Source: an uncultured Candidatus Saccharibacteria bacterium (GTDB taxonomy: Bacteria; Patescibacteriota; Minisyncoccia; Phycocordibacterales; DATDWN01). Taken from it: DNA of 64,000 bases. The notes beneath the pieces are model-generated. The model saw only the letters and a program-made list of their open reading frames with translations. It was not told the origin of the DNA and searched no databases. Shown piece by piece: positions 2,613-36,148 of the stretch. The position numbers were made by a program, and so were the translations under genes. The stretch's first letter is position 1. Each line of letters opens with the position of its first letter. The DNA lies in assembly GCA_964426735.1 (NCBI GenBank), contig CAYRRP010000002.1:6582-70581 (forward strand), in the 5' to 3' direction.

Positions 2613-2623
2613 AGGTCACTCTG

Positions 2624-2920: not shown

Positions 2921-2932
2921 TACATTTATCTC

Positions 2933-3298
2933 ATGGCAAAGAAACAAGAAAGTGGTGTTGCAGTAGCGGTAGGTCTCGGAGCTCTTGCGGCTCTCTCAGC
3001 GGGGGCATACTTTTTGTATGGAACTAAAGAGGGCGCAAAAAAACGAGTAAAAATTAAAGGATGGATGTTGAAGGCAAAAGGGGAAGTATTGGAAAAAATG
3101 GAGTCTTTGAAAGATGTAAATGAAGAAACATACAATAAAGTACTTTCTACTGTTATGAAAAAGTACGAAGGACTTAAGAATGTTGATCAAAATGAAGTTG
3201 CAGAATTAGTAACTGATCTTAAAAAGCACTGGAAGAATATAAAAAAACACATCGATGGTGCAACAAAACTAAAAAAAGCTGTAGCAAAGAAAAAGTAA
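2933..3298 (+). CDS. YtxH-like small lysine-rich protein
   Basis: 121 aa with a short hydrophobic N-terminus (AVAVGLGALAALSAGAYFLYG) and a K/E-rich helical remainder. Confidence 0.45.
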   Translation: MAKKQESGVAVAVGLGALAALSAGAYFLYGTKEGAKKRVKIKGWMLKAKGEVLEKMESLKDVNEETYNKVLSTVMKKYEGLKNVDQNEVAELVTDLKKHWKNIKKHIDGATKLKKAVAKKK

Positions 3299-3318
3299 AA
3301 AACTTTTACTTCGAACAA

Positions 3319-3346
3319 AAAGACCGTTTATTACGGTCTTTTTGTT
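3319..3346 (+). terminator. rho-independent terminator
   Basis: Stem aaagaccgt/acggtcttt followed by a T-run. Confidence 0.6.
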
Positions 3347-3367
3347 TATACAAGTCTCTGGTATAGT

Positions 3368-3820
3368 GTGTGGCGGGAGGAAAAAGCTATGGCAGTAACA
3401 TTACTGAGACTGTGGGACATTAACTTGAAAGGTTATAAGATTGTACGGTATTCAAATTCGTGTCCTGCAGACTTGAAATCACTCGAACCCGTCAGATTTA
3501 GCGGTGAGACCTTAGAGCACGCTCTTGCGTCAACAGAAGGTTATGATTCGACAAATTTAACCCTTATCGGTTTAGCTCGAGTTAGTAAAGAAATCAAAAA
3601 AATTCACAAGTCACAGGTACCAGATTTCTTTTTTGAGCAGCGCTGCTGGGTGCCTCGGCGGTTTATTGCGGGGGGAACCTTGTTGGTGTATAAGGGTGAG
3701 AAGTATGCACTCGCTTTTTATTTTATTGGCCATGAATGGTTCGTCCGGCCAGTAGTTCTTTCCATGAAAAATACACCGGATTACTATTTTCTGGTGGTGA
3801 AGAAGGAGGGGTCTGCATGA
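3368..3820 (+). CDS. hypothetical protein (possible start at 3389)
   Basis: 150-aa ORF with no recognised motif. The stop codon lies in the loop of the downstream hairpin. Confidence 0.4.
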   Translation: MWREEKAMAVTLLRLWDINLKGYKIVRYSNSCPADLKSLEPVRFSGETLEHALASTEGYDSTNLTLIGLARVSKEIKKIHKSQVPDFFFEQRCWVPRRFIAGGTLLVYKGEKYALAFYFIGHEWFVRPVVLSMKNTPDYYFLVVKKEGSA

Positions 3821-3836
3821 TGCAGACCCTTTTTTG
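3808..3836. terminator. terminator hairpin gggtctgca-tga-tgcagaccc + T6; convergent genes on both sides
   Basis: Perfect 9-bp stem followed by tttttt. Confidence 0.65.
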
Positions 3837-3839
3837 TTA

Positions 3840-5030
3840 TTAGCGTGTATCTTTGAGGGCAAGTGACCAGTATGTTCCAAGTATTACTGTAATTCCAAGC
3901 AGGAGGAATATGTAATTGTATGGTAAAAATCTCAGTGCGAATGTTGCAACGATAGGTCCAATAATAAAACCAAGTGGGCGAGTGGTTCGGTATATACTGA
4001 TTTCATCAGTTTGACTTTGATTTACTTGTTTAAAGAAGAAACTATCTGAGGTGATTTCAACAAAGGAAGCCCCAGTACGTGTAAGGAATAGGAGTGAAGT
4101 CCAGAGAATAAAGTTGTTGGTGGTGATGAAGCTGATGCAGATTGTTGCAAGACCCATGATTATAAGTCCTATAGTGAGTATTTCTTTCTCACCGTATTTA
4201 GTGTCAGCAAGTTTGCCGATAGGAAGCTCAAATAATGCAAATGGAAGAAGCATGATAGTAAACATAATACCGATTTGTTCCCATGAGAATCCGATATGCA
4301 TGTTCAGATGTACAGGCATATAAATAATCATAATTGCATAGAACAATTGAAGGATGAGGTGACACATGAATACTTTCGATAGGTTTGCTATTTCTATGAA
4401 TGTAACCACCGTCTCACGTACTTTAATGTGTGCAATAGGTACATCTGTATAATTTTTAAAATATCGTCTGGTGAGGATGAAGAGTGGTATAAGACAAAGG
4501 AGTGATATGAAGTACACTCGATCAAATTGATCTTTTGCTAAAATAAAACCTACAAGCATTGGTGCGATTACGAGAGTAATGTTTGCAAGGGTAAGATATG
4601 TACCTCGAATTCCACCAGTTTTTGTTTCATCGGTTGATTCACTTTCGAGGAAGACATCGAGATTGAAAAGAATAAGAGGAACGACAATTTGATGGATAAG
4701 GAAATAGATACCAATCAGTGTGGGGTTTTGTGAAAATATCAGGCCAGTTACTGCAAGAGCTTCGAGTGTGATCGCACTCAGTATAATTTTATAGTTGCCA
4801 ACTTTGTTGAGTATTTTTGATATATTGAGAAGGAGCACAAGGTTTATGAGTGACCCTATGGTGTAGAGGTTACTTACTTGATCATCGGTAAAAAAATGAG
4901 ACAGAAAGGATGAGTTTATGTAAATAATAAAGTAATAATGGAAGGATAGAAATATGTTGGCAAGATATACAACAGTGAGTAATTTATGTTGACGCACCCG
5001 TTCAGTTAATTTCGTAAGAATAAAATCCAT
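3840..5030 (-). CDS. MFS-type transporter (start taken at internal Met MDFILTK)
   Basis: About 12 hydrophobic segments. The longer ORF (to 5141) overlaps the IS transposase gene, so the internal ATG at 5030 is preferred. Confidence 0.6.
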   Translation of the reverse strand: MDFILTKLTERVRQHKLLTVVYLANIFLSFHYYFIIYINSSFLSHFFTDDQVSNLYTIGSLINLVLLLNISKILNKVGNYKIILSAITLEALAVTGLIFSQNPTLIGIYFLIHQIVVPLILFNLDVFLESESTDETKTGGIRGTYLTLANITLVIAPMLVGFILAKDQFDRVYFISLLCLIPLFILTRRYFKNYTDVPIAHIKVRETVVTFIEIANLSKVFMCHLILQLFYAIMIIYMPVHLNMHIGFSWEQIGIMFTIMLLPFALFELPIGKLADTKYGEKEILTIGLIIMGLATICISFITTNNFILWTSLLFLTRTGASFVEITSDSFFFKQVNQSQTDEISIYRTTRPLGFIIGPIVATFALRFLPYNYIFLLLGITVILGTYWSLALKDTR

Positions 5031-5127
5031 ATTTGTATAGTATAACGGAAAATGATGCTTGGACAAAACTAAGTGAGTACTACGGATCTCCCCACCATAC
5101 ACCTTTCCGGAGTTTTCCAAAAGTGTT

Positions 5128-6060
5128 TTAGGTACACACATTTGTCACCTCTAATTCTAACATTTCATTAGGTGTTTTCCCATTTAAACCACAATGTTCT
5201 AAATTGTTGTAGTACTCATTCCATGTTTTCAATTTCTCTTGCAAGTCATTCATTGATTTGAATTTGTGTTTTTCGTAGAATTTCTCTTGATCTTCTCTGT
5301 GACTTCTTTCCACTGTCCCGTTTTGTGCAGGTTTGCCAGGATCAATGAGGTAGTGAATGATATTGTGTTCTGTACAAAATGTATCAAGTCCATGGAGTGT
5401 TTTGACTGAAACATCACTTCTTTTGTTTGTTCCGAGGTAGTAGTTGGTGAACATACTTCCATTGTCTGTTTTAATTGCATGTATCTTGTACTTAAATTGC
5501 TTGATGACGTCTTCTAGAAACAAAACTGAGTGGTATGATGTCTGTTCATCATATATTGCAAGATACCTCCATCGAGAAGCTGTATCAATGGCTGTATACT
5601 GAAAATATCGTTTTCCTGCAATCTTTCCTGGTACATACTTCACATCAATCTCAATGAGTTCACCTGGTTTTCTTTCAGCTTTGATATATTTGTATTTGAT
5701 TTTCTTTACTCTGTATTTTCGTACTAAATTCTCTGATTTCAATATCTTTCCAATTGTTCTTTCGTGAATGACAACTCCTTCCTTTGCTAGTTTCCACTTT
5801 AGCTTGAGTGCACAGAGTTTAGTTTTCTTTCGGAGATCAACCACTCTCTCTTTTAGTTGAATCTGTGATTCCTTTGGATTTGTCTTTGGTCTTGTTGATT
5901 TTGGTATGAGTCCTTTCTCTCCTTTGTCACGGTATTCTTTGAGCCACCTCTTGAGGGTTCTTCCATTGTGAGGAAAGATCTTGATTACATCTTTTAGCCT
6001 AGCTCCATCCTCGACCATTTGTACCCATCTTAAACGTTCTTCTTGTATGTTTTTTGGCAT
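5128..6060 (-). CDS. DDE transposase, IS481/IS3-superfamily integrase core
   Basis: N-terminal HTH-like region followed by the catalytic DDE region (IDVKYVPG..., TDNG, VERSHRED). Confidence 0.75.
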   Translation of the reverse strand: MPKNIQEERLRWVQMVEDGARLKDVIKIFPHNGRTLKRWLKEYRDKGEKGLIPKSTRPKTNPKESQIQLKERVVDLRKKTKLCALKLKWKLAKEGVVIHERTIGKILKSENLVRKYRVKKIKYKYIKAERKPGELIEIDVKYVPGKIAGKRYFQYTAIDTASRWRYLAIYDEQTSYHSVLFLEDVIKQFKYKIHAIKTDNGSMFTNYYLGTNKRSDVSVKTLHGLDTFCTEHNIIHYLIDPGKPAQNGTVERSHREDQEKFYEKHKFKSMNDLQEKLKTWNEYYNNLEHCGLNGKTPNEMLELEVTNVCT

Positions 6061-6112
6061 ATGTGTACACATGAGTTAACTCTACTAAAAAGTGACATAT
6101 GTGTGTGCACAT
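5128..6112 (-). mobile_element. IS481-family-like insertion sequence (single DDE transposase gene, imperfect terminal IRs)
   Basis: Transposase ORF 5128-6060 has an rve-type integrase core: KTDNGSMF ... VERSHRE. Terminal IRs are gtacacacatttgtcac (5132-5148) and gtgacatatgtgtgtgcac (6092-6110, reverse complement). Length about 1 kb. Confidence 0.7.
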
Positions 6113-6124
6113 TACCAAAGTTTA

Positions 6125-6153
6125 TTGACAAAATGGTGCTATGTGTTATATAA
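6125..6153 (+). promoter_or_regulatory. sigma70-like promoter for flp (TTGACA-16/17-TATATA/ATATAA), followed by SD caggaggg
   Basis: Sequence read directly. Lies between the IS right end and the ATG at 6172. Confidence 0.5.
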
Positions 6154-6171
6154 CATATACAGGAGGGTGAT

Positions 6172-6414
6172 ATGAAACTCACTCGAATTCTTTCCCGTTT
6201 AGTTCGGGCCACCACCGGTCAGGACCTCATTGAATACGCGTTGATGGCCGGCTTCATTCTGGTTGCTGCTGGGGCGATCCTGCCAGGAGTTGCCAACAGT
6301 CTCAGTCATCTGTGGCACAAAGCAACTTGTGCTAATCACCAGGTGGAGAAGAGCGTTGATGGCAGCTATTCTTGTGCGCTCTCTGTGTCCGTTCCTGTGC
6401 GAGGGTCACGATAA
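6172..6414 (+). CDS. flp: Flp/Fap family type IVb pilin
   Basis: TTGQDLIEYALMAGFILVAAGAI is the Flp prepilin G/xxxxEY processing motif plus hydrophobic stretch. The gene is markedly GC-rich compared with its surroundings. Confidence 0.7.
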   Translation: MKLTRILSRLVRATTGQDLIEYALMAGFILVAAGAILPGVANSLSHLWHKATCANHQVEKSVDGSYSCALSVSVPVRGSR

Positions 6415-6516
6415 TGGATTCGACCATGGTACGTGCCGTCTGCGCACTGTTGGCTGTAGTTTTCTTGGTAATTATTGTTGTCCGTCGACGTAATGACGAA
6501 GAAGAATAATTGCCCA

Positions 6517-6554
6517 AAACGCCTGCGAGGGAAACCTCGCAGGCGTTTTTCTGT
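6517..6554. terminator. strong bidirectional terminator aaacgcctgcgagg-gaaa-cctcgcaggcgttttt
   Basis: 14-bp GC-rich stem with a T-run on the + strand and an A/T context on the - strand. Sits between flp (+) and rnj (-). Confidence 0.7.
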
Positions 6555-6582
6555 TTACTGTTGACTAATGACTGTTGTCTTT

Positions 6583-8409
6583 CTAGACTCCAAGGATTAC
6601 TGGAATCACAATTGGTTTCTTTGCGGTCTTTTGGTAGAGGTAGCGGCCGACATTGTCCGCAACATTTGCTTTGACGTAGTCAAAGTTGATTGGGTTCATA
6701 CCTTTGGTTGTATCCTCAACTGTTTTTTTGATAATCTGGCGTGTCTGGTTTAAGAGATCTTGCGATTCTCGCAAATACACAAATCCTCGAGAAATAATAT
6801 CGGGAGATTTTTTGAGTTTACCTGTTTTTGCATTCACGCTTGCAACAATCATGAAGATACCATCTTGAGCGAGTGTTTTTCGATCTCGAATCACGAGCTC
6901 TTGTACATCACCAATAGAGAATCCATCCACCATCACGACATTGTCAGGAGCAGATTCTTTGAGACGAACAAATTTAGTTCCACCATCTTGGATTTCAAGG
7001 ATTGCACCATTGTCAGGAACAATAACATTCTCGGGAGGCATACCGATAATTGATTTTGCAAGATCTTCATGTACACGAAGCATGTAGTGACTCCCGTGCA
7101 TTGGCATAAAGAACTTCGCTTTTATTTTTTTATGTAACCATTCGAGCTCTCCTCGGTTTCCGTGTCCAGTTGAGTGGATATATACATCAGATGATCGATA
7201 GTGGATGATTTTTGCACCTTGTCGAGCAAGATTATCTTTAAGTTTCTGTACAGCTTTTTCGTTACCCGGAATAATAGAAGAAGAGAGAAGGACAGTATCC
7301 CGAGGAGTTACTTTAAAGTATTTATGAGTCTTGTTTGACATACGCATCAGTGCCGCAAACTCATCTCCTTGTGCACCTGTTGCGAGCACTACAATACGAT
7401 CAGGAGGGTAGTTTTCCATATCATCTGAGGTGATGATTGTGTCTTTTTTTACTTTCAACATATCGATTGTACGAACAATATCGATATTGTTTTTCATACT
7501 TCTTCCTTCAACAACAACTTTCTTTCCATACCGCTCAGCGATTTCAATGATTTTCATCACGCGTTCGAGCTGTGATGCAAACGTACCGATAATGAGACGA
7601 CTTTTTGTGTTTTTAATAATCTCTTCCAAGTTTTGATGTACTAGACGTTCTGGTGTAGAAAAACCTTGGTTATCAACATTTGTTGAGTCCATCATGAGGA
7701 AGAGTACTTTTTCTTTTTCAAAACGAGAAAATTCTTTTTCTTCTGCTTCGGTAGGAACACCATCAACATGATCAAGTTTGATATCGCCAGGTGTGACGAG
7801 TGCACCATATGGTGTATCGATAATAATACCCATTGAGTCTGGAATAGTGTGAGTCACAGCAAAGAAACGCACTTTAAGTTTTCCGAGAAGAATCGCATCT
7901 TCTTTTTCCACGACTCGAATATCGAGCGCTGGGAGATGAGGGAACTCTTCTTGGCGTTTTTTAACCATAATAGAGGTCAATGCACGAGTGTAGAGTGGTG
8001 GGTTACCGATTCGATCCATGATGTATGGAATACCACCAATATGATCGAGGTGTCCGTGAGTGATAATCACTCCACGAATCTTATCTTTTCGATCCTCAAG
8101 GTATTTTGTGTTAGGAAGAATGTAGTCTACACCTGGTGTATCATCATCTTTAAACTGAAAACCCATATCGATAACTATAATATCGTCTTTGTACTCGATA
8201 AGGGTCATGTTTTTTCCAATCTCTTCTACTCCACCAAGTGGAATAATACGGATTGAATCTCCGGCAGGAGGGATCACATCGTCTTGTTTTTTAGTAAGAC
8301 GTACGTGAGGTGTATGTGGACGACCAAAACTTCTTCGTGGAGAACGTATTGCGCGATGTGTTTCGCGAGGAGTATGTGGTGTTTCGTTATGTGTATCTGA
8401 CTGGTTCAT
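6583..8409 (-). CDS. rnj: ribonuclease J (metallo-beta-lactamase/beta-CASP RNase)
   Basis: 608 aa. HGHLDHIGG zinc motif and overall RNase J organisation, plus an about 60-aa basic N-terminal extension. Confidence 0.85.
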   Translation of the reverse strand: MNQSDTHNETPHTPRETHRAIRSPRRSFGRPHTPHVRLTKKQDDVIPPAGDSIRIIPLGGVEEIGKNMTLIEYKDDIIVIDMGFQFKDDDTPGVDYILPNTKYLEDRKDKIRGVIITHGHLDHIGGIPYIMDRIGNPPLYTRALTSIMVKKRQEEFPHLPALDIRVVEKEDAILLGKLKVRFFAVTHTIPDSMGIIIDTPYGALVTPGDIKLDHVDGVPTEAEEKEFSRFEKEKVLFLMMDSTNVDNQGFSTPERLVHQNLEEIIKNTKSRLIIGTFASQLERVMKIIEIAERYGKKVVVEGRSMKNNIDIVRTIDMLKVKKDTIITSDDMENYPPDRIVVLATGAQGDEFAALMRMSNKTHKYFKVTPRDTVLLSSSIIPGNEKAVQKLKDNLARQGAKIIHYRSSDVYIHSTGHGNRGELEWLHKKIKAKFFMPMHGSHYMLRVHEDLAKSIIGMPPENVIVPDNGAILEIQDGGTKFVRLKESAPDNVVMVDGFSIGDVQELVIRDRKTLAQDGIFMIVASVNAKTGKLKKSPDIISRGFVYLRESQDLLNQTRQIIKKTVEDTTKGMNPINFDYVKANVADNVGRYLYQKTAKKPIVIPVILGV

Positions 8410-8429
8410 ATGTGTGTTGTTACGTTGGG

Positions 8430-10172
8430 TTAATGTTTAATAAAGAATTTCCATACATCGTTTGTATTGATATACCACTCGTGTACATTGAGGAATCGTT
8501 CTCCAGAAATGGTGAGTTGACCAAGTGTAATGTTTTTAACTCGTGTCGGTGTGATATATATAAAGTAAGGTGCATACAAGAAGACGGCAGGAGTATCATT
8601 TTTAATTTCTGTTTCAAATGAAGAAAGATACTTTTTCTTGATGGTTTCATCGGTTGTTTTTCGGTAATCTTCGAGGAGTTTGTCGGTTTTTGGGTTTGCG
8701 TATAATGCAATGTTGAGTCCGGGATCACTTCGTTGTGATGAGTGCCAAAATGGATACACATCGAGATCTCTTCCAAGGACTTCTCCGAAGAGAAGAGAAT
8801 CATATTTACGAGGGCGAATGATATTCTGATTTAGATCACCGACTTCAAAAATTTTTACCTCTACTCGTGCACCAAGTTGTTGCCAACGAGTCTGTATATT
8901 TTGCGCAAGCGCTTTGAGTTCTGGTGCATCGGAAGTAGAAATAGAGAAAGAAAGTATTTCAGTGTCTTTGCCGGTCTTTTTTTCGTATACTCCCTGATCA
9001 TTAAATGCCCAGCCTGCCTTCTCGAGGATTGCACGAGCGTCACTTAAGCGCTCTTCAGGTGTTGTCTCGGTACGGTCGGTTGTGTTGGTATGAAGTGGGC
9101 CGTTGAGTGCTTGCCCGTATCCGACAAGAACTTCTTGAATGATTTGATTTTTATCAATCACACGATCAAGTGCAAGGCGTACTTCCTTGTTTACCAATAC
9201 GGGATTCTCGTTTTGGTTGAAGAATACGCCAAAGACGCGAGGAAGAGGTTGGGTAATCGTACGTGCATTGCTTGTGCTTAGAAGTGCAACATTTTGTGGG
9301 GATATACTATTGATACTTTCTACATCTCCATTTTCAAATCCATCAAGCAAATTTTTTTCATTTGTATAAAATTTTAATACAAGAGTGTCGATGTATGGTC
9401 TACCAAGTGAATATTTTTTGAATGCATGAAGAGTGTATGTAGTTGGGAGACCAGATGCATTTGTTGCAAATGAGTCGACTGAATATGGCCCACTTCCTAC
9501 TGGTTTGGTGTTGAATGTGCTAAATGGGAAACTTTCAGTATCTACATTTTTCCAAATATGCTTTGGTAAAATACCGAGTGTGGTATTTTGAATAAAAGGT
9601 GAGTATGCTTGCTTGAGTGTAAATCTCACTGTGTGTTCGTCAATCTTTTCAACCTTTACTCCATCCCAGTTACTTCGGCGAGGACTTTTTAAAAATGCAT
9701 CTTGTGCTTTTTGGACAGTAAATTCGACATCGTCAGCAGTGACAGGTGTGCCGTCGTGAAATACAGCAGTCTTTTTTAATGTAAATGTATAGATTAATCC
9801 ATCTTCTGAAATAGAATATTCCTGAGCAAGGTCTGGATGTAGACCGCCGTCAGATGTAGCTTTCATGAGTCCAGAGTATACGAGAGATGTGAGGTCTCGG
9901 TCTGCGTCAGAAATCGCAAGAATAGGGTTTATAAATCGAGGTGAACCTACAATACCTTCAGTAATACTTCCACCATAGTCAGGTACTTCTACAAGAAAAG
10001 ATTTGTTGAGTGTGTAAAGTAAAATAAGTCCAGAAATAATACAGATGATACTGATACATGCAAAAAGTATCTTTTCTGTAATAGAAAATGATGAAATAAG
10101 AGATCGTATAGTAGTATAATGAGACACTATCCACCGCTTGTGCGCTTGAGTGTCAGGTAGGTTATTTTCCAC
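8430..10172 (-). CDS. ABC transporter substrate-binding protein, family 5 (oligopeptide/nickel type), N-terminally membrane anchored
   Basis: 580 aa with an N-terminal TM helix and an SBP_bac_5-like body. Confidence 0.6.
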   Translation of the reverse strand: MENNLPDTQAHKRWIVSHYTTIRSLISSFSITEKILFACISIICIISGLILLYTLNKSFLVEVPDYGGSITEGIVGSPRFINPILAISDADRDLTSLVYSGLMKATSDGGLHPDLAQEYSISEDGLIYTFTLKKTAVFHDGTPVTADDVEFTVQKAQDAFLKSPRRSNWDGVKVEKIDEHTVRFTLKQAYSPFIQNTTLGILPKHIWKNVDTESFPFSTFNTKPVGSGPYSVDSFATNASGLPTTYTLHAFKKYSLGRPYIDTLVLKFYTNEKNLLDGFENGDVESINSISPQNVALLSTSNARTITQPLPRVFGVFFNQNENPVLVNKEVRLALDRVIDKNQIIQEVLVGYGQALNGPLHTNTTDRTETTPEERLSDARAILEKAGWAFNDQGVYEKKTGKDTEILSFSISTSDAPELKALAQNIQTRWQQLGARVEVKIFEVGDLNQNIIRPRKYDSLLFGEVLGRDLDVYPFWHSSQRSDPGLNIALYANPKTDKLLEDYRKTTDETIKKKYLSSFETEIKNDTPAVFLYAPYFIYITPTRVKNITLGQLTISGERFLNVHEWYINTNDVWKFFIKH

Positions 10173-15786: not shown

Positions 15787-15873
15787 GGAGGATTCGTATA
15801 GCGGTCTAGTGCGCTCGCTTGGAAAGCGGGTAGGGAAGAAATTCCCTCAGGAGTTCGAATCTCCTATCCTCCG
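15787..15873 (+). tRNA. tRNA-Ser (anticodon GGA), class II with long variable arm
   Basis: Acceptor GGAGGAT/ATCCTCC, anticodon loop TTGGAAA, variable arm AGGGAA-GAAA-TTCCCT, T-loop TTCGAAT. No encoded CCA. Confidence 0.8.
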
Positions 15874-15891
15874 CTAAAATTCGAAGTGCTG

Positions 15892-15925
15892 GCATAAAAA
15901 TGAGGGAGTTGTTGAAACTCCCTCA
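15892..15925 (-). terminator. terminator for the minus-strand gene 15956-16276 (gagggag-N9-ctccctc, T-run on minus strand)
   Basis: Hairpin read directly. Overlaps the first copy of the 26-bp direct repeat. Confidence 0.5.
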
Positions 15926-15955
15926 CGGTCTTCTGTAACATATCCAAGGTAAGAT

Positions 15956-16276
15956 CTAGTTGAGTTTTGGGTCGAAAAACCCTATAAGAGACAGTCCTTC
16001 AGTGGACCCTTTCTCTGAAAGATGTGCGAGCACTCTGATTTTTTCAGTTTCAGCTTCGACATCAGTCTCGAAGGTCTGAATAAACTTTTTTTGTTCTCCG
16101 CAGTGTTCGGGTTGTGGCGATGCTCCAAGAAAATATTTGAAATTAGATCCGTTCTCACGAACGTGGATACCAATCGCAAAATTTCCTCTCTTTAAAACTT
16201 CTCTACAAACCTTACATCCCTGAACGATACCCTCCGGATGCTCTACGACCAACACTTCACATTCATTATTTTTCAT
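15956..16276 (-). CDS. hypothetical protein
   Basis: 106 aa with several Cys (CKVCREV..., EHCGEQ). No recognised family. Confidence 0.4.
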   Translation of the reverse strand: MKNNECEVLVVEHPEGIVQGCKVCREVLKRGNFAIGIHVRENGSNFKYFLGASPQPEHCGEQKKFIQTFETDVEAETEKIRVLAHLSEKGSTEGLSLIGFFDPKLN

Positions 16277-16406
16277 AACGCTTTCCTTTTGGTTTGAAAT
16301 GAACTACTTCACTGAATTGAGTATAGCTGGGACAAAAGCATAAGTGAAGTTTTATATCAAATAAATAATATTTGTATCTTTTTGTTATATATGATATTTT
16401 TTTATT

Positions 16407-17051
16407 ATGATCAAAATAAACGATGTAGTTCAGTATATTTTATATAAAGACGAAGAAGCTCTCACCGCTCTGGCAAAGGGTTATATGAATTTATCTAAAT
16501 ATGCTAAACAAATTCAGGGGGAAGTTAGGGAAAAATCAAAAAAAGAAGTGGGTATTCCGGGGATTGTAGTTTCGTTATCTCGTCTAGCCCAAAAAACCAA
16601 TTCTAAGCATCCACTGATCCAAGATGTTCAAATAAAAAATATTACAACAAAAACTCCTCTTTCAGAGATTGTGTACAGTAAGACCACTGAATCAATCTCA
16701 AAACTTTCCAAAATATACGACAAAGCTAAAACTGGTGCTGATGATTTTTTCACAATAACACTCTCTACAAATGAAATTACAGTTATCTGTAGTGATAGAA
16801 TAAAAGCAGAAATTGAGAGAACACTAAAAGAAAAGCCAGTAATGACTGTAAAAAATCTTGCTTCTATTGGTCTGTCTATCGATCCAAAATACTATCCAAT
16901 GCCAAATATAACCTATTCCTTAATTAGAAGAATCGCACAAAAGAGAATACCCTTGGCAGAAACTATTACTACCCGCACAGAAATTATTTTTGTGTTTGAA
17001 CAAAAATATTTAGCTGAGATGGTTGATTTGTTCATTGTTAAAGAAAACTAG
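16407..17051 (+). CDS. hypothetical protein
   Basis: 214-aa ORF with no recognised motif. Confidence 0.4.
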   Translation: MIKINDVVQYILYKDEEALTALAKGYMNLSKYAKQIQGEVREKSKKEVGIPGIVVSLSRLAQKTNSKHPLIQDVQIKNITTKTPLSEIVYSKTTESISKLSKIYDKAKTGADDFFTITLSTNEITVICSDRIKAEIERTLKEKPVMTVKNLASIGLSIDPKYYPMPNITYSLIRRIAQKRIPLAETITTRTEIIFVFEQKYLAEMVDLFIVKEN

Positions 17052-17214
17052 CCGTCCATCAAAGAACCAGAAAAACCAAAGTTCGAAGTGTTGGCATAAA
17101 AATGGTAGAAAGGGAATTTCTGACCCAAATGAACTTGAAAGGTACATAATAAATATTTACAAAACACTACTCACGCGTGGTATAAAAGGCACTTATGTTT
17201 ATGTTGTTGATTAA
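17023..17214 (+). pseudogene. C-terminal remnant of a DUF2075-like (Schlafen/RecD-like ATPase family) gene
   Basis: The 63-aa ORF ends ...TLLTRGIKGTYVYVVD, which resembles the conserved C-terminal signature of DUF2075 proteins. No upstream body exists, and the second copy of the 26-bp direct repeat lies inside it. Confidence 0.35.
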
Positions 17215-17313
17215 AATTTAAGAAATTGTTTAAACCAAGTTGTAAATAAAACCTCGATCTCAATTCAAAAAGAAATTACTCCAGGAATAATAAAATCTCC
17301 ATATGTTGGTGAA

Positions 17314-17694
17314 ATGGTTAGTGTTCCATTGGTTGGGTCTGCGCCTTGTGGGGAACCACTTTTGGGAGAAAGTAATATTGAGGAAATGATACAAGTCGAA
17401 AAAAACAAAATTAAACCCGGGACCAAATATTTTATTGTTAGAGCTAGTGGAGATTCCATGAATAAAGCGGGAATAGATGATGGTGGTCTTGTTCTCTGTC
17501 GGTATGCTGAAAAAGGGGAAACTGGTGATAGAGTCGTTGCATTACTTGGTGGTGAAAATGTAACGATAAAATATTATGATAAGAAGGATGGTCGTAGAAT
17601 TTTGTTGCCAAAAAGTACCAACCCCGATCATCAGCCGATTGTCCCAGAAGAAGGAGATACTGTTCAAGGTGTAGTTCAGGAAATTTTGAAATAA
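17314..17694 (+). CDS. umuD: S24 family peptidase, UmuD-like (no DNA-binding domain)
   Basis: 126 aa with VRASGDSMNKAGIDDGGLVLC (catalytic Ser in GDSM) and a downstream Lys. There is an in-frame stop 72 nt upstream, so no LexA-type HTH. Confidence 0.7.
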   Translation: MVSVPLVGSAPCGEPLLGESNIEEMIQVEKNKIKPGTKYFIVRASGDSMNKAGIDDGGLVLCRYAEKGETGDRVVALLGGENVTIKYYDKKDGRRILLPKSTNPDHQPIVPEEGDTVQGVVQEILK

Positions 17695-17852
17695 ATTTTA
17701 ACACAGCCATGTATGATTCGAGACTTTTGTTGGATATTATAAATAGTGGCTTACCCTGTCTTCCTGGCTAAATCTCCCTGTCCCCGCAAAATCGTGATAG
17801 TACGAGATAAGTCTAAAAAAGGCCCCAATTGAGTGCTTTTTAAACTTGATAA

Positions 17853-18986
17853 ATGTATGATGAGTTTATGGCAAAATGCATCTACTGCTTAAAAGATGAG
17901 ATAGGGACAACTTTTCTAAGCAGGGAACATGTTATTCCTCAGTCTTTTGGCACTTTTACCCCGTTAAATCCAAATATAAAAGGTGATGTTGTCTGCGATA
18001 GTTGTAATACAAAAATCCTAAGTCCTCTGGAAACTAATTTCATTGAAGATTCAATGGAGGGTTTTTTCGCACAACGATTAAATCTGAACAATAGAAACAG
18101 TATCACAATGAGAAATGGAAACTTTAAGATTGATACAGATAGCGGTTTTGGTCATGATTTCTTTAATCAAATGGTTTTTCCACTTAAACCAGAAAACGAT
18201 AAGCTCGTTCCTTATCCAAAAACTCAAATAAAATTTCGAGGGCTCGGAGGTCAATCTTGTCGAGTGTTCTTTCCAGAAGCACTAAAACAAATCAAAAAAG
18301 ACTCAAAAGAGTTTTTGAAACTTTCTGCTGACATGAAGAAACTAAGTCAAAAAGATCTCTGTATTTTCGCTGAGACGCATGAGGATATGAATGAGGTCGT
18401 CGTACTTTTAAAGGAGTACGGTGTGATTTACAACGAAAAAGAGCGTTATCACAAACCTTTTGAAGAAGGTGTGAAGTACGAATTGTCAGAAGACTATTCT
18501 TGTACAGTAAATCATAATATTGGTCGTGTCCTAGCAAAGATTGCACTGAATTATTTTGTGTATTGTTGTATACAAGACAGTCAAAAATCACTTCTGCTAT
18601 TGCCAGGTTTTGATCCAATAAGAAACTATATATTTAAAGGGGATGGAAAAATGCGAGACTTCATTGTTTCTGTTAATGAGAAGCCTATTACTTATTATGA
18701 AAATGAAAATGATGAGAGGATCATTTCGCATATCATTAATTTTATTGAAGAAAATGGAATGGTTGTTGCAAGAATGACATTCTTTGGTTGTCCTGCAATC
18801 TACAAAATTATTTTAGGTGAGATGCCAAACGGAATACCTGTCAAAAACTTTGGGTGTGGGCATTTATTCGATCCTTTTTCAAAAAGAATTATCAATATGG
18901 CAAATAAACCCACGCCAGAGGAGCTAACTTCTGAACAAGTGAGGGTAACTTTCGGTATACAAAAAAGATATCGTTTTGGCACATAA
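17853..18986 (+). CDS. HNH-motif nuclease domain protein with large unknown C-terminal region
   Basis: N-terminal KCIYCL...SREHVIPQSFG...DVVCDSCN gives the CxxC...(E)H...N...CxxC HNH signature. The remaining 280 aa or so are unrecognised. Confidence 0.55.
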   Translation: MYDEFMAKCIYCLKDEIGTTFLSREHVIPQSFGTFTPLNPNIKGDVVCDSCNTKILSPLETNFIEDSMEGFFAQRLNLNNRNSITMRNGNFKIDTDSGFGHDFFNQMVFPLKPENDKLVPYPKTQIKFRGLGGQSCRVFFPEALKQIKKDSKEFLKLSADMKKLSQKDLCIFAETHEDMNEVVVLLKEYGVIYNEKERYHKPFEEGVKYELSEDYSCTVNHNIGRVLAKIALNYFVYCCIQDSQKSLLLLPGFDPIRNYIFKGDGKMRDFIVSVNEKPITYYENENDERIISHIINFIEENGMVVARMTFFGCPAIYKIILGEMPNGIPVKNFGCGHLFDPFSKRIINMANKPTPEELTSEQVRVTFGIQKRYRFGT

Positions 18987-19055
18987 TGATCGGGTTTTTG
19001 AAGGTACTCTAAAAAAGTAGATTGCAAATTCGCCTGTAAACCTTATGATGAAAGA

Positions 19056-19964
19056 GTGAAAAAGCGTCACCACACCGTGCCGAGATGTTACCTAGAAAAC
19101 TTCACTGACCATGATGGTTTTGTTTGGGTTTTGGATACAAAAGACAATATATTCCGTATTAAGCCTGAAAATATTCTCCTTGAAAATCACTTCTACACTA
19201 TCACACTCAAGGACGGTGAAAAGAGCTTCGTAGTTGAAGATACTCTGGCCAATATTGAAGGAGCGTACATTGCAATCTTTCAGAATAAAATTGAAAAAGA
19301 GCTTCCTCTTACTGATGAAGAAAGAGCAAGAGTTGCTGTTTTTATAGCTGCGCTTTATATAAGAACTTCACCGTATAGAGAGGGTCTTCGCAGTGCGTTT
19401 GGAACGCTCAGAAGGGGTATGGAAGATTGGAAAAAGCAGTTTGAGACAATGAGTAAAGAATCGAAAAGGGCTATGGCTGCTATCCAATCTTCCGGCAAAG
19501 ATGAATTAATCAGTATTGATGATTTGGATAAGTACTTAGAGAATTTTAATGAACATCATTCTGTAAACGTGATTGAACAGTTGCCTGAGATTGCCCAAAT
19601 CATATTTGATATGAAGTGGGCTATCTGGAGAGATATTAATAGTAATTTTGTTACAAGCGATGATCCTGTTGTGCTTTTGCGGCCAGAGTCAATTAAAAAA
19701 TATGGAGCAAATGCAATTGGTAGCAAACCAGGGCTTCTTTATAAAGATACTGAGTTAACACTTCCTCTATCGAAAGATAGATTGCTTTTAGCAGGATGGA
19801 TACTGAACAAAAATTCTTATATAGATGTTCCTGATGATATTGTCCGGAGGATAAACCACAGAACGATAACAGGATCTTCAGATAGAATTATTACTAAATC
19901 TCAAAAGGATGCTGAAACAATAAGAGATAAATATACCGAAACTGTAAATAAGACAGAAAAATGA
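19056..19964 (+). CDS. DUF4238-like protein
   Basis: The N-terminus MKKRHHTVPRCYLENFTD matches, from memory, the HHxVPxxYLxxF start of the DUF4238 family. Confidence 0.45.
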   Translation: MKKRHHTVPRCYLENFTDHDGFVWVLDTKDNIFRIKPENILLENHFYTITLKDGEKSFVVEDTLANIEGAYIAIFQNKIEKELPLTDEERARVAVFIAALYIRTSPYREGLRSAFGTLRRGMEDWKKQFETMSKESKRAMAAIQSSGKDELISIDDLDKYLENFNEHHSVNVIEQLPEIAQIIFDMKWAIWRDINSNFVTSDDPVVLLRPESIKKYGANAIGSKPGLLYKDTELTLPLSKDRLLLAGWILNKNSYIDVPDDIVRRINHRTITGSSDRIITKSQKDAETIRDKYTETVNKTEK

Positions 19965-20632
19965 ATGATGAATTTCTGCAAAAAAGAATAGCTGAAACAA
20001 AACACGAAATCTTTCCAATTGACAGGCTTTTATCATTGGAAAGCGTCTACCTCATATTCCAAGAAGAATACGTGAAGGTTGAAGATAAAAATCTTTTATT
20101 CAAAGATTCTAAATATCAGCGCTTGCGAGAAGGTTACTTTTCGATGTTTGTTGCCGTTTCTCTTCAAGATAACTCGGTTTCGAGGAAAAGGCACTATCTT
20201 ATTTTCCCCTCAGATCCTAGTAACGATGTCTATATTAGCTACAGATTGAATGAGGAGAAAGAGTCGATACCGAAGTTAATAGCCTACGAATTTGATATTA
20301 AAGAATATACGAACTGGTCGCTAAACTTTGAAGAATTCACCAAGAAAAGTATAATTCCAAAAATTGGTATCTATAATATCGCTATACCCATTTATAGAAA
20401 AATGGACGGACAGGATCTGCAGTTGTTGGTCGATTATTTGAAAGCAAACAAGCTCATAAGAAGAATATGGATACTCGGACTCCCATCAGATACCGTGAAA
20501 AATTATGATATTTCTGATGTAACTATTGTTGATAAAGACGGTATTATTTATCATAAGACGATAAACCTAAGTGAATGGATAGATAAAACCGAAGTGCCTA
20601 TAATTTTTCAAGATATCATTAGGTTTAAATAA
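19961..20632 (+). CDS. hypothetical protein, translationally coupled to preceding gene
   Basis: ATGA start/stop overlap. 223 aa with no recognised motif. Confidence 0.45.
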   Translation: MNDEFLQKRIAETKHEIFPIDRLLSLESVYLIFQEEYVKVEDKNLLFKDSKYQRLREGYFSMFVAVSLQDNSVSRKRHYLIFPSDPSNDVYISYRLNEEKESIPKLIAYEFDIKEYTNWSLNFEEFTKKSIIPKIGIYNIAIPIYRKMDGQDLQLLVDYLKANKLIRRIWILGLPSDTVKNYDISDVTIVDKDGIIYHKTINLSEWIDKTEVPIIFQDIIRFK

Positions 20633-20747
20633 ATTATTCAGACTGTAAAAAATAAGGATAAGGCTTTTTTGGATCGGTGGAGAAGTTGTAGTATAGAAAA
20701 ATAATACGCCAAAGAGTATAGTTCTCCACAGGTGATATCTTGTTTCG

Positions 20748-20771
20748 GTGAACGAATGTTCACTGTATAAT
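20748..20771 (+). promoter_or_regulatory. Cheo-box-like LexA operator candidate GTGAAC-gaat-GTTCAC overlapping a TGTATAAT -10 element
   Basis: GAAC-N4-GTTC at 20750-20761 and TATAAT at 20766-20771. Lies at the predicted start of the Y-family polymerase gene. Confidence 0.45.
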
Positions 20772-22010
20772 GTAGGTGTGTCAAAGAACAGAGTAATTTT
20801 TCATATGGATGGGGATGCTTTTTTTGTTGGATGTGAGGTGGCAAAAAATCCAAAACTAAAAGGTCTTCCTGTTGTCACCGGGCAGGAGCGCGGGATTGTT
20901 TCTGCGCTTTCATACGAAGCCAAAGCACTTGGCATAATCCGTGGTATGCCTATTTTTCGCGTAAAGAAAAATTTCCCAAACGTTTTAGTGTTGCCAGGTG
21001 ACTATGCGTCCTATGTCATGTATTCAGAAAAAATGTTTGATATTGTGCGCCGGTATGCAGACGATGTGGAGGAATACAGTATAGACGAATGTTTTGCAGA
21101 CCTGACAGGGCTCGACAGACCGCTCCATATGACATACACACAAATAGCCGAGAGAATTAAAAAAGAAGTAGTGGCAGAACTCGGACTTTCGGTTTCTGTC
21201 GGACTCGCTCCGACAAAAGTTTTAGCAAAAGTTGCATCGAAATGGAAAAAACCAGATGGACTTACGGTGATTGACTTAGGACATATAACACAGTTTCTGA
21301 CAGAGACACCGATAGGTAAAATCTGGGGTATAGGGCCACGCACCGCAGAGCGTTTACAGAGATTGGGGATAAAAACAGCGGGAGACTTTGCCGGCAAAGA
21401 TATGACGTGGGTCAAAAATAATTTATCTAAACCATATATAGAAATATGGATGGAGTTAAATGGGGTGTGCGTACACCACGTCGACCCAAACCCAAAAACA
21501 ACATATTCCTCGGTGCAGAAAACGAGAACTTTTTATCCGACAACAAACGACAAGGTTTTTCTCCTTTCGCAGATATCCAAACATACAGAGGAGGCTTGTC
21601 GTAAAGCGAGACACTACAACCTCGTTCCCAAAAAATTTTCTTTCTTTTTGAAAAGTCATGATTTTACATATTATTCACACACAGTAGTGTTAGAGGTACC
21701 TACACATGCACCAGAAACGTTGGTCAGTATCGCACGGTCTCACCTCGACAAAGCTTGGCGTCCAGGTGTGCAGTTTCGGACCACAGGCGTGACTCTTTCA
21801 GAACTCGAGCCCGAGGGTGTAAAACAAGGTGACTTGTTTGGTGCGATTGAAAAAGCAACAAAGTTTGAGATCATACACAAACAAATAGATAGTCTAGAAA
21901 AAAAGTTTGGTAAAGGTGTAGTGCATCTCGGCAGTACAGACAAAGCAATAAAAAACAGAACCCTCGGTACCGACTCGGACGATCTTTCTCGCGACTTGCT
22001 GTTTTTGTAA
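20748..22010 (+). CDS. umuC: Y-family DNA polymerase (UmuC/DinB-like); start codon uncertain (GTG 20748, GTG 20778 or later)
   Basis: VIFHMDGDAFFVGCEV is the h-h-D-x-D-x-F-F-a-x-x-E palm motif. A little finger domain follows. Confidence 0.8.
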   Translation: MNECSLYNVGVSKNRVIFHMDGDAFFVGCEVAKNPKLKGLPVVTGQERGIVSALSYEAKALGIIRGMPIFRVKKNFPNVLVLPGDYASYVMYSEKMFDIVRRYADDVEEYSIDECFADLTGLDRPLHMTYTQIAERIKKEVVAELGLSVSVGLAPTKVLAKVASKWKKPDGLTVIDLGHITQFLTETPIGKIWGIGPRTAERLQRLGIKTAGDFAGKDMTWVKNNLSKPYIEIWMELNGVCVHHVDPNPKTTYSSVQKTRTFYPTTNDKVFLLSQISKHTEEACRKARHYNLVPKKFSFFLKSHDFTYYSHTVVLEVPTHAPETLVSIARSHLDKAWRPGVQFRTTGVTLSELEPEGVKQGDLFGAIEKATKFEIIHKQIDSLEKKFGKGVVHLGSTDKAIKNRTLGTDSDDLSRDLLFL

Positions 22011-22093: not shown

Positions 22094-22122
22094 TTGACAT
22101 AACGCTATCCGTATGCTAAGAT
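22094..22122 (+). promoter_or_regulatory. consensus promoter TTGACA-17-TAAGAT upstream of GC-rich gene, with SD aaggag 8 nt before ATG 22198
   Basis: Sequence read directly. Confidence 0.55.
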
Positions 22123-22197
22123 AGCGCAGGATTCATGAGCTATTTCTGGCTCAAAAAATGCATATTCCCAAACCCAAACGAAAGAAGGAGACAAGCT

Positions 22198-22932
22198 ATG
22201 GCAACCGATGGTCCTGATCCCGCACCCTGTAAGCCTGATATTCTCAAGAAAGGCAGGGGTGTCTGTGTCCTCGACGGTAGTTCCAACGCTGTAGAGCGTT
22301 GGGTACAGTCTGTCGCTAAGAAAGCTAACGCTCAAGTCGACTGGCATTACAGTGGTGGACGAGCGAACGTTCTGCATCTCGGTGACGACACAAGTCGTCA
22401 GCGCGTTCTGAACGCAATCAGTGAGCTCAGAGGTGAACTCAAAGGTCGGATTCTCAGCGTCGACGGTCCTGCCCTCTATAGTAACGATATCGAAGATCCC
22501 GAAGCAAGCGGCGCAGTCGTTCGTGAAGTCGACGGCCAACTGGTGCTCGATGATCCGATCGCCGTCGCGGTGATCAGGGTGGTGGAGAAACACAACTGCC
22601 GTAACACACTGGAACTGAACGCCGATCGCGTCAAGCACTTCAAGCGTCGGCTGACGGAGCGTGGCATGACTCCAGATCAAGCGGTGATCGTTCTCCTGAA
22701 CGTCGACGACGTTCACGGCGGTCCGCTCGCGAACGCTCTGATGCCCGGACACAACTGGCAGGAAATCCGTGACAAGGGAGAAGTCCCTTTCGCGCGAGGA
22801 CTCGCCATGCGAGACGGCATTCAGAAAGCGCTCGGTGCTTTCGACAAGGACGCCGCGACGAAGTTGCAGAGCATCAGCGACGTAGCTGTCGTGGTAGTTG
22901 ACCACGGTGTCGCCGAAGTATTCGCGGCCTAA
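22198..22932 (+). CDS. hypothetical protein encoded by a GC-rich (foreign-composition) insert
   Basis: 244 aa. Strong third-position G/C bias in this frame, and a good SD and promoter. The antisense ORF 22105-23043 is judged an artefact of GC richness. Confidence 0.55.
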   Translation: MATDGPDPAPCKPDILKKGRGVCVLDGSSNAVERWVQSVAKKANAQVDWHYSGGRANVLHLGDDTSRQRVLNAISELRGELKGRILSVDGPALYSNDIEDPEASGAVVREVDGQLVLDDPIAVAVIRVVEKHNCRNTLELNADRVKHFKRRLTERGMTPDQAVIVLLNVDDVHGGPLANALMPGHNWQEIRDKGEVPFARGLAMRDGIQKALGAFDKDAATKLQSISDVAVVVVDHGVAEVFAA

Positions 22933-23057
22933 CCGCAAAACTTCGCAATGGCACAATGGGCGCACGACCTTCGGGTACGTGCGCCTTTTCTTATACCACA
23001 TCCAATGAACGAAGCCACAGAGTTTAGAGTAACCATCAGACACGGAGAGGAAGCGTC

Positions 23058-24781: not shown

Positions 24782-25337
24782 GATGGTGAAGTAAATCTTT
24801 TAGAATCTTTTTTGCTCGGTTGAGATGAATTGCAACGGTTCCTGGTGGTATCTGTAGAATATCAGCGATTTCTTCATAACTTTTTTCTTCATAAAACCGG
24901 AGTTCTATAATATCCTGATATTTTTTATCGAGAGTCTCCAAAGCTTTCTTGAGTAGCACCTTTTGCTCTTCATGGAGTGCAACAGAAGATGTATCATCAG
25001 TTGCAGTCAATGAATGAAAAATCGTTTCATCTGCATCGAATGATACAGATGGTTCGCGTTTTTTCTTACGATACCAGTCAATCATTTCATTGTAAGCAAT
25101 ACGATATATCCACGAAGAAAACCGAAGGCTTGGATCGAAATCCTTCATGTTTTTATACACCTTGATAAAAATATTTTGAAGAAGATCGTCTTGGTCTGCG
25201 GTTGATGCATGTGATTTTCTCCCTATATATGCTCTGAGTTTAGGTTCGTATCGCTCAATAATATGAGCAAAAAACTCTCTGTCAGTGAGAGATTGTTTAA
25301 GTATTTCTTCGTCAGTGAGGTGTGAGGCAGAGTCCAT
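24771..25337 (-). CDS. RNA polymerase sigma-70 family, ECF subfamily
   Basis: A region 2 followed by a region 4 with IPPGTVAIHLNRAKKILK. Confidence 0.75.
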   Translation of the reverse strand: MDSASHLTDEEILKQSLTDREFFAHIIERYEPKLRAYIGRKSHASTADQDDLLQNIFIKVYKNMKDFDPSLRFSSWIYRIAYNEMIDWYRKKKREPSVSFDADETIFHSLTATDDTSSVALHEEQKVLLKKALETLDKKYQDIIELRFYEEKSYEEIADILQIPPGTVAIHLNRAKKILKDLLHHHDQ

Positions 25338-25427
25338 TCTCTCTAGTATATACGAAAAGTAACATGATTTTCTTTCAGAAGCAGTGTTTGTATATTTTCA
25401 AGAGTCTTCTGATATACTAGAGTCTAT

Positions 25428-26815: not shown

Positions 26816-27394
26816 TTACGTGCGGCGCCGGAGTGCTGCGATGCCGATGAGCCCTGCGCCCATGAGGACGAAGGACATCGGTTCGGGTACCTGGGATGTC
26901 ATGTTACCTGACCATGCAACGGTGGTGTCGGGGTTGTATCCACCAGCGTACTGAGCTGATATTGCCCCGGTGACAACTGTCGGGTCGAAACCATTCCCTG
27001 TAACTGTGCCGGTGAACGCGGCCGACAGAAAGTCAACCCCGCCTGGTAGACTCGTGAGTACCCAGACATTCGCCCCTTGCCAGGAGGTCACATCGACGGT
27101 GAATCCGTTGAAAGTGAGAAAGCCTGGCATCGGGATGTTGCCGAGGATGTTGGTTGCGGTTCCGCCGCTCCCGAGGGAGCTGCTGAAATCGCCGGTAGCC
27201 GGGGTTACGACAGTGAACGACGGGGTACCGATGAAGGTACCACTGTTCATGTTATTGATTTTGATGTTCGCCACCGGTGAGCCGAAGTTCACCGTGCCGT
27301 AGATTGGTGCGGCGGTTGCCGCCGGTGAGAAGAGGCCGAAGCCAATGACTGCGATCATGGCCAGGAGGCCATTTTTTAAAAAGTTTTTTACCAC
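26816..27394 (-). CDS. PEP-CTERM sorting-domain secreted protein
   Basis: Signal peptide. C-terminus VPEPMSFVLMGAGLIGIAALRRRT (PEP motif + TM + basic tail). GC-rich. Confidence 0.7.
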   Translation of the reverse strand: MVKNFLKNGLLAMIAVIGFGLFSPAATAAPIYGTVNFGSPVANIKINNMNSGTFIGTPSFTVVTPATGDFSSSLGSGGTATNILGNIPMPGFLTFNGFTVDVTSWQGANVWVLTSLPGGVDFLSAAFTGTVTGNGFDPTVVTGAISAQYAGGYNPDTTVAWSGNMTSQVPEPMSFVLMGAGLIGIAALRRRT

Positions 27395-35656: not shown

Positions 35657-35688
35657 CAAAACTACTCCATGATGGAGTAGTTTTGATA
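35657..35688 (+). terminator. palindromic terminator caaaactactccat/atggagtagttttg
   Basis: 14-bp perfect palindrome followed by a T-run. Confidence 0.7.
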
Positions 35689-35698
35689 TACTAAGAGG

Positions 35699-36148
35699 AT
35701 GAAAAAAATACTTATTGCTCTATGCTGTGTGATCGTATGTATTGGTGTATTGTATGGTATACGTACATCACATACAGTATCGGTGGTTTCGTATAATACG
35801 AAAGAAGTGATGCTGGGTAATACAGTGTATACTCTTGAGATTGCTGATACTGATTTGTTGCGAGAGAAAGGGCTTTCGTATCGACCATCTCTTGATGCTC
35901 GTACAGGAATGCTTTTTGTGTTTACAGTCCCAAGTAGACTGAAATTTTGGATGAAAGATATGAACTTTCCTTTAGATATTATCTGGCTTGATGCTGATAA
36001 AAAAATAGTACATATTGAGCATTCACTTTCACCGGCGACCTACCCACAGTCCTTTGGTCCAGAAACTCCAACTCAATACGTAATCGAAATCCCTGCGGGG
36101 GATACGATAAAACGAGGACTTGTGATTGGAGATATGATGTCATTTTAA
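35699..36148 (+). CDS. DUF192 domain protein
   Basis: FWMKDMNFPLDIIWLD. Confidence 0.6.
   Translation: MKKILIALCCVIVCIGVLYGIRTSHTVSVVSYNTKEVMLGNTVYTLEIADTDLLREKGLSYRPSLDARTGMLFVFTVPSRLKFWMKDMNFPLDIIWLDADKKIVHIEHSLSPATYPQSFGPETPTQYVIEIPAGDTIKRGLVIGDMMSF

Follow-up and report, generated by a model that had tools for sequence, protein, structure and literature searches.

A candidate LexA operator at the promoter of a gene for a Y-family translesion polymerase from the Patescibacteria

The 16-bp box GTGAAC-N4-GTTCAC at positions 20748-20763 of the DNA analyzed here (a stretch of 64 kb, the whole of which is referred to below as the window) is most likely a LexA operator situated within the promoter of a gene coding for a Y-family translesion DNA polymerase. 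The box is conserved at this polymerase gene and recurs ahead of full-length lexA genes in Patescibacteria, and it is from this twofold distribution that we identify the site as a LexA operator. We infer that LexA, encoded elsewhere in the genome, binds here and that expression of the error-prone polymerase very probably increases after DNA damage in this organism. On this model, a LexA dimer seated on the promoter spacer would block RNA polymerase, DNA damage would provoke RecA-stimulated self-cleavage of LexA and thereby free the promoter, and transcription would begin at or beside the GTG codon at 20778, yielding a leaderless mRNA translated from its 5' end.

Letters and geometry of the box and its promoter

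The elements of the promoter and the gene that it serves are the following, in order of position.

20740..20747, + strand: weak -35 region (TTGTTT at 20740-20745, 20 nt from the -10 element)
20748..20763, no strand assigned (.): candidate LexA operator (SOS box), GTGAAC-GAAT-GTTCAC, with the core GAAC-N4-GTTC at 20750-20761
20764..20771, + strand: extended -10 element TGTATAAT, directly adjoining the box, with TATAAT at 20766-20771
20778..20780, + strand: GTG, probable start codon, at which transcription is also predicted to start; it begins 7 nt past the final base of the -10 element
20778..22010, + strand: 410-aa translesion DNA polymerase of the Y family, DinB/Pol IV-like (Pfam, PDB, and alignment A1)

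Read directly from the sequence, positions 20748-20763 are GTGAACgaatGTTCAC, a 16-base palindrome, and the sequence of this region is cggtGAACgaatGTTCactgtataatgtaggtGTG. This agrees with a preliminary description of the same DNA, which had placed a GAAC-N4-GTTC palindrome (gtGAACgaatGTTCac) at 20748-20763, a -10 element at 20764-20771, and a GTG at 20778. The dyad, GTGAACGAATGTTCAC, has the GAAC-N4-GTTC form and lacks the CGAAC..GTTCG flanks of the Firmicutes version; its arms read TGAAC..GTTCA (GTGAAC..GTTCAC in full) in all 27 sites from the clade of the window, which makes this a lineage-specific variant of the arms. The TATAAT hexamer begins 4 nt past the GTTC core, the extended element touches the 16-mer without a gap, and 6 bases (gtaggt) then lead to the GTG at 20778. 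Relative to the transcription start predicted at that codon, the box spans about -30 to -15 and overlaps the region contacted by RNA polymerase, a placement shared by all related loci.

The remainder of the promoter is less conventional. Hexamers lying 17 to 18 nt upstream of the -10 element match TTGACA poorly, and a scan of the window with a generic sigma-70 consensus did not call the polymerase promoter because its -35 region is weak. A TG extension of the -10 element can compensate for a weak -35 region, and the TG-extended -10 is common to the window and its closest relatives (L001 and L214-L218). We treat the site as a putative extended -10 promoter, an assignment backed by this kind of conservation.

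Within the window, the bare core GAAC-N4-GTTC matches twice against an expectation of 1.05, a count equaled by 30 of 100 shuffles, and the second match, at 27770, falls within a coding region without a promoter. The full 16-bp box matches once, compared with no match in 100 shuffles; if up to two mismatches are allowed, it matches four times against 2.2 expected, which is the chance level. A position weight matrix built from 41 related sites assigned the site at 20748 a score of 27.4 bits, slightly above the median of its training set (26.8 bits), and the next best match in the window reached 16.7 bits and is intragenic. Neither pattern nor matrix scans recovered a second box elsewhere in the 64-kb window, and none stands upstream of the nrdAB genes contained in it. 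Given that the 8-base core occurs at chance frequency, the significance of the site lies in its extended arms, its promoter context, and, above all, its conservation across species. As a separate observation, the second-best matrix match, at 27275-27294 (CGGTGAGCCGAAGTTCACCG; 14 to 17 bits), carries a mismatch in one arm and lies inside a G+C-rich open reading frame (ORF); no -10 element is found near it, and it is probably nonfunctional.

Conservation at orthologous polymerases and lexA genes

Using the alignment of the polymerase family (A1), we gathered 80 species-level genome loci that encode a relative of the polymerase. Together with the window they amount to 1.21 Mb, in which the exact box occurs 36 times against about 0.06 occurrences expected from base composition, and nearly all 36 lie in promoters, ahead of either the polymerase or the gene preceding it. 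In 29 of 52 upstream regions of orthologous polymerases, the box is found at the same place, against the -10 hexamer. At roughly half of the loci whose polymerases share 57 to 83% protein identity, GTGAAC-N4-GTTCAC adjoins (T/C)TATAAT or TGTATAAT upstream of the gene, and in all related loci the -10 hexamer follows the box after 0 to 2 nt. Across 27 genomes of the clade, the arms hardly vary at any of their 12 positions, the 4-nt spacer between them takes 22 different forms, and next to no information is contained in positions -20 to -7; these 27 sites were chosen for resembling the pattern, the unbiased figure being the 29 of 52 loci given above. The closest relatives, namely, Gr01-1014_46 (L214/L215) and L216-218, carry the box without a mismatch, around different spacers (TATA and CATA) and in unrelated upstream sequence. 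In conjunction with the lexA promoters described below, this recurrence bears out the earlier proposal of a LexA-type SOS box at this position.

The same comparison decides against reading the palindrome as a chance match or as a structural RNA or terminator hairpin of the upstream gene, which we consider vanishingly improbable. Such a reading could appeal to the chance frequency of the 8-base core in the window and to the ability of any palindrome to fold into a hairpin. However, the full box is absent from every one of the 100 shuffles, it occupies the same promoter position at 29 orthologous loci with unrelated upstream genes, and its arms are invariant in sequence rather than covarying. 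Moreover, the hairpin is not followed by a T-run, no terminator is called there, and the fold does not stand out (z = -1.8, with 13 of 200 shuffles folding equally well). We take this reading to be effectively refuted by the cross-species conservation.

At more distant loci (L050-L078, with polymerases 47 to 50% identical to that of the window), the box is found about 650 nt upstream of the polymerase, ahead of a gene for a protein of 187 to 190 aa. Its promoter has the layout TTGACA-(g)-box-(c)-TATA(A/C)T, in which a consensus TTGACA touches the box. In a PDB search this protein aligns to residues 26 to 197 of Escherichia coli LexA, including the winged helix-turn-helix (wHTH) domain (E=3e-21), and the recognition part of the wHTH reads GFRSKNA against GFRSPNA in E. 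coli LexA. It further possesses an A-G cleavage site and a Ser/Lys dyad (alignment A2), scores 110.8 bits against the TIGR00498 lexA model, whose cutoff is 110.95, and has homologues annotated as LexA by both NCBI and JGI. Pfam detected Peptidase_S24 alone in the 188-aa proteins and did not recognize a LexA DNA-binding domain in them; a 197-aa variant additionally matches PF01726 (LexA_DNA_bind; E=4e-4).

We also made an open scan of metagenome contigs for the box followed within 0 to 2 nt by TATAAT, which recovered at least 120 loci; among those listed, a downstream gene could be assigned in 112. The pattern demanded the -10 hexamer, and the sample is nonrandom. Among the matches listed, the gene directly behind the box is a full-length lexA in 38 of the 112, a short or truncated S24 gene in 11, a Y-family polymerase in 10, a member of a single family of approximately 65-aa proteins in at least 26, and some other gene in 27. 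The predominance of lexA is the classic signature of autoregulation. Among those listed lexA genes that have enough downstream DNA, the polymerase follows in 24 of 30, and lexA stands alone in the remaining 6.

The above distribution is also the principal evidence on whether the box might serve a factor other than LexA that shares the GAAC-N4-GTTC dyad, a reading that we hold to be very unlikely. In its favor, the binding of LexA to the box is deduced from sequence, and the 27 other genes among the listed metagenome matches are neither SOS-typical nor of the S24 type (e.g., TetR-like, integrase-like, and Rha-like proteins). Against this, lexA is the commonest gene directly behind the box among the matches listed; the dyad equals a motif of Gram-positive bacteria, GAAC-N4-GTTC being well established as the sequence recognized by LexA in Firmicutes and Actinobacteria (PMC3323433; PMC11442139); and the gene under its control is a canonical SOS gene, given that the core LexA regulon across phyla comprises lexA, recA, dinB, and umuDC (PMC8565304). 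The LexA operator is hence retained as the preferred reading.

Several further observations were made on genes found behind the box. The approximately 65-aa proteins are characterized by the motif LNxxIDxKIIxGxxYxxEARRHK and belong to the commonest genes directly behind the box in Patescibacteria-like contigs. Examples are found at L149 (134-), L183 (466-), L193 (202-), and L072 (8916-9134), in the last of which the gene precedes lexA and the polymerase, and there are about 26 further metagenome loci. Pfam gave no match to the family, which has no member in the window and may represent an undescribed SOS gene. In two other loci, L134 (693-) and L152 (9631-), 97-aa LexA remnants lie behind perfect boxes upstream of the polymerase; they are devoid of the wHTH domain, the cleavage site, and the catalytic serine, with GDHL replacing GDSM. 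The 13 matches to the box in viral contigs were uninformative, most of them representing one repeated segment without an ORF behind it. A near-identical segment, caacNataGTGAACTTTGGTTCACC(G/A)TATAATtgtaccaac, is common to about ten viral contigs from IMG/VR and a single metagenome contig (L081, L082, L085-L091, L093, and L105), most of them with no ORF following.

The polymerase gene and its start

The polymerase contains the IMS (PF00817), IMS_HHH (PF11798), and IMS_C (PF11799) domains, and the catalytic acidic residues D11, D103, and E104 do not vary in alignment A1 of the family. Among the solved structures of the PDB, it matches DNA polymerase IV chains best (E=2e-47). It falls short of the NCBIfam cutoffs, scoring 252.5 bits against 399 for NF002492, the best model, and 179 against 431 for the UmuC model NF002955. 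On the basis of these comparisons, we classify it as a Y-family polymerase closest to Pol IV, without an equivalog assignment. Its homologues are named as proteins of Parcubacteria, Paceibacterota, or Patescibacteria; the best match is 93% identical, and that of Parcubacteria bacterium Gr01-1014_46 (GCA_007376085.1) is 86% identical. The window itself comes from a genome of the Parcubacteria (Paceibacteria).

The position of the start codon was examined across the 52 orthologous loci, accepting a -10 hexamer if it agreed with TATAAT in at least five of six positions. An in-frame ATG or GTG lies 5 to 8 nt past the hexamer in 47 of them (ATG in 32 and GTG in 15), and the gap is exactly 6 nt in 43, including all 29 loci that bear the box. 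The N terminus itself is variable, with the number of codons from the start to the conserved DGDAFF motif ranging from 8 to 28 across orthologues. Transcription typically starts about 7 nt after the -10 element, and in the window the last base of TATAAT is 20771 and the first of GTG is 20778. A fixed distance from the -10 element to the start, combined with a variable N terminus, points to a leaderless transcript. The position equivalent to GTG 20778 is ATG in L214 and GTG in L216. Further, homology to solved Pol IV structures starts at RVIFH, which corresponds to residue 3 of E. coli DinB and to the fifth residue if translation begins at GTG 20778. Taken together, the constant 6-nt gap, the start codons of the closest relatives, and the extent of the homology support GTG 20778 as the likely true start of a leaderless mRNA, as the preliminary description had suspected.

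Two other starts deserve mention. The mechanical ORF does begin within the dyad, whose three leading bases are GTG 20748, just as the preliminary description had pointed out. This codon lies inside the operator and upstream of the -10 element, and it is out of frame in relatives such as L002. Many gene calls in the databases (P0001-P0006 and others) instead give a protein of 401 aa from an internal ATG at 20805 (MDGD...), nine codons late. As the homology to Pol IV begins at residue 5 from GTG 20778, a start at this ATG would delete strand beta1. The probable explanation for such late starts is that gene finders do not model a leaderless start.

Similar arrangements recur elsewhere in the window. 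TATA(A/C)T is found 6 to 7 nt before the ATG of a long ORF at 35687-35701, 46852-46866, 48743-48757, and 49856-49871, as well as on the minus strand at 25337-25350. Spacings of 6 and 7 nt between a -10 element and ATG are overrepresented in the window, with 15 and 11 cases, respectively, against about 6 at other spacings. This pattern suggests that leaderless mRNAs may be common in this organism.

Cognate repressor, gene neighborhood, and relation to known SOS systems

Searches with tblastn found no full-length lexA anywhere in the 64 kb, nor did they find one less than 10 kb from the polymerase in any genome of its clade, and a comparison of all ORFs of the window with the metagenome loci likewise found no lexA-bearing contigs of close relatives. 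As far as it can be tested with these data, the earlier suggestion that the cognate repressor would have to be encoded elsewhere holds. The same results are compatible with a different history, in which lexA was lost, the palindrome is the relic of an ancestral LexA site, and the polymerase is expressed constitutively from the extended -10 element; on balance we judge this unlikely. It would account for the lack of lexA near the polymerase in the clade. Additionally, the box is missing from approximately 20 of 49 clade genomes, which implies that the regulation is dispensable in this lineage. Some polymerase promoters retain a half-site only, as in L012 (about position 2600, 'tcctcaTTCACcTATAAT'), consistent with decay of an SOS circuit, and the degenerate 97-aa LexA remnants of L134 and L152 still lie behind perfect boxes. 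However, the box of the window is perfect at all 12 arm positions, and each of the closest relatives also has a perfect box despite differing spacers and unrelated upstream flanks. Perfect arms beside freely varying spacers and flanks argue for ongoing purifying selection rather than drift, and stand-alone lexA genes with the same box do exist in the phylum. We accordingly favor an operator still bound by a LexA encoded elsewhere in the genome.

The preliminary description had also noted a LexA-like protein without a DNA-binding domain in the window. The product of this ORF (17314-17694) does contain only an S24 domain by Pfam, but its likeness to LexA did not hold up. Its nearest relatives (66 to 77% identity) carry the domain at the C terminus of proteins of up to 677 aa. 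A 63-codon ORF (17023-17214) precedes it in the same frame, and a single reading frame through 17023-17694 is colinear with the approximately 190 C-terminal residues of the 677-aa protein P0241, with 77% identity over the S24 part. P0241 combines a weak GIY-YIG match, an SLFN-g3 (DUF2075) helicase domain, and the S24 domain; the copy in the window has an in-frame stop at 17212-17214 and is missing the first approximately 485 codons. From this colinearity, 17023-17694 appears to be the 3' remnant of a gene for a Schlafen-type helicase-S24 fusion. We could thus rule out both UmuD and a truncated LexA as identities of the S24 ORF, which is the decayed 3' end of such a fusion. The intact fusion, which attaches a self-cleaving S24 domain to a nuclease-helicase, may be responsive to DNA damage in its own right.

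The DNA preceding the polymerase has little in common with that of related loci. The backbone shared with the closest relatives runs LemA ... polymerase ... PPIase, RRM, DUF192, nrdA, nrdB, gap, and in none of the related loci are the S24 remnant, HNH_5, DUF4238, or the 223-aa ORF found near the polymerase. The island of the window (15900-20632; low G+C content, 0.35) comprises HNH_5, DUF4238 (PADLOC DUF4238-Pers, E=4e-14), and the 223-aa gene of unknown function. At the corresponding position, Gr01-1014_46 has a type I restriction-modification system (L214, 1825-9899) and L216 a block with MethyltransfD12 and T5orf172 (2453-9895). Gene content thus indicates that the segment just upstream of the polymerase is a strain-variable island unrelated to it. 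Since the upstream cassette is such an island, coupling by readthrough is no conserved feature, though some readthrough may occur, no terminator being called between 20632 and the box. The preliminary description had raised readthrough from this cassette into the polymerase; the replacement of the cassette by unrelated genes in the closest relatives speaks against it as a conserved feature, and an operon of cassette and polymerase was set aside for the same reason, as the cassette varies and is absent from the related loci.

Other features of the window were recorded alongside. A 23-bp direct repeat, TTCGAAGTG(C/T)TGGCATAAAAATG, occurs at 15881-15903, right after a tRNA-Ser gene (15787-15874), and at 17081-17103, exactly where the helicase-S24 homology begins; the repeat resembles the trace left by an insertion or recombination event beside the tRNA gene. 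Downstream of the polymerase, 22105-23043 has a G+C content of 0.46 against approximately 0.39 and contains long overlapping ORFs of 265 aa (+) and 312 aa (-); the segment has no Pfam or PADLOC match, and nothing equivalent to it occurs in the related loci. At 22094-22122 lies a promoter close to consensus (TTGACA-17-TAAGAT). The remaining window consists of housekeeping genes, including those for GroEL, RNase J, nrdAB, gap, and a split transketolase.

Among the closest known systems is the Cheo-type box of Bacillus subtilis, Staphylococcus aureus, and Mycobacterium tuberculosis, which has the same 4-4-4 dyad, GAAC-N4-GTTC (PMC3323433, PMC11442139), and, as here, lies in promoters of lexA and error-prone polymerase genes. 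The mechanism would be the same as well, with occlusion of the promoter relieved by RecA-stimulated self-cleavage of LexA. The Cheo-type box differs in its flanks (CGAAC..GTTCG as opposed to GTGAAC..GTTCAC), and the present site differs from it in its Patescibacteria (CPR) host, in the fixed position of the operator, which fills the spacer between the -35 and -10 elements, and in the predicted leaderless mRNA. The arrangement also resembles that of dinB (Pol IV) and umuDC (Pol V) of E. coli, where LexA represses a Y-family polymerase gene by acting at that gene's own promoter, as we propose here. However, the E. coli box is CTGT-N8-ACAG rather than GAAC-N4-GTTC, there is no UmuD partner comparable to that of umuDC (the nearby S24 ORF being the remnant of an unrelated gene), and in distant Patescibacteria, unlike in E. 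coli, the polymerase is cotranscribed with lexA. Leaderless mRNAs of Actinobacteria and Deinococcus likewise have the -10 element 6 to 7 nt before ATG or GTG, leaving no room for a Shine-Dalgarno sequence; those belong to other phyla, and in the present case the leaderless state is predicted from conserved spacing. Work in mycobacteria indicates that both ATG and GTG function as start codons of leaderless mRNAs.

An SOS network of Patescibacteria, that is, of the same superphylum and under the same regulator as the one considered here, was reportedly described by Sanchez-Osuna, Barbe and Erill in 2017 (Environ Microbiol 19:3465), with translesion polymerases said to be among its targets. One passage of PMC7739468 cites that study among direct-repeat LexA motifs, and a passage of PMC8565304 cites it as well. 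Some of what was reported in 2017 may therefore differ from the palindrome described in this work.

The above geometry also invites a broader, more tentative reading, which we put forward as a possibility somewhat short of an even chance. The SOS regulon of Patescibacteria could constitute a single module of fixed geometry (TTGACA, 0 to 1 nt, GTGAAC-N4-GTTCAC, 0 to 2 nt, TATAAT, 6 nt, start codon) that makes leaderless mRNAs, with LexA on the spacer as the sole control and the approximately 65-aa family as an effector target. If so, there would be no layer of control in the 5' untranslated region, the site in the window would be one instance of the module, and the approximately 65-aa proteins would possibly be the SOS effector of the lineage, e.g., a division inhibitor. 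The general understanding of the SOS response is unchanged by the present site, regulation through LexA boxes being itself well known. Its interest lies in providing a well-supported example of regulation in the CPR/Patescibacteria, a largely uncultured group with few described regulatory sites; further, it would correct the start of the polymerase gene, and it points to leaderless translation in this lineage.
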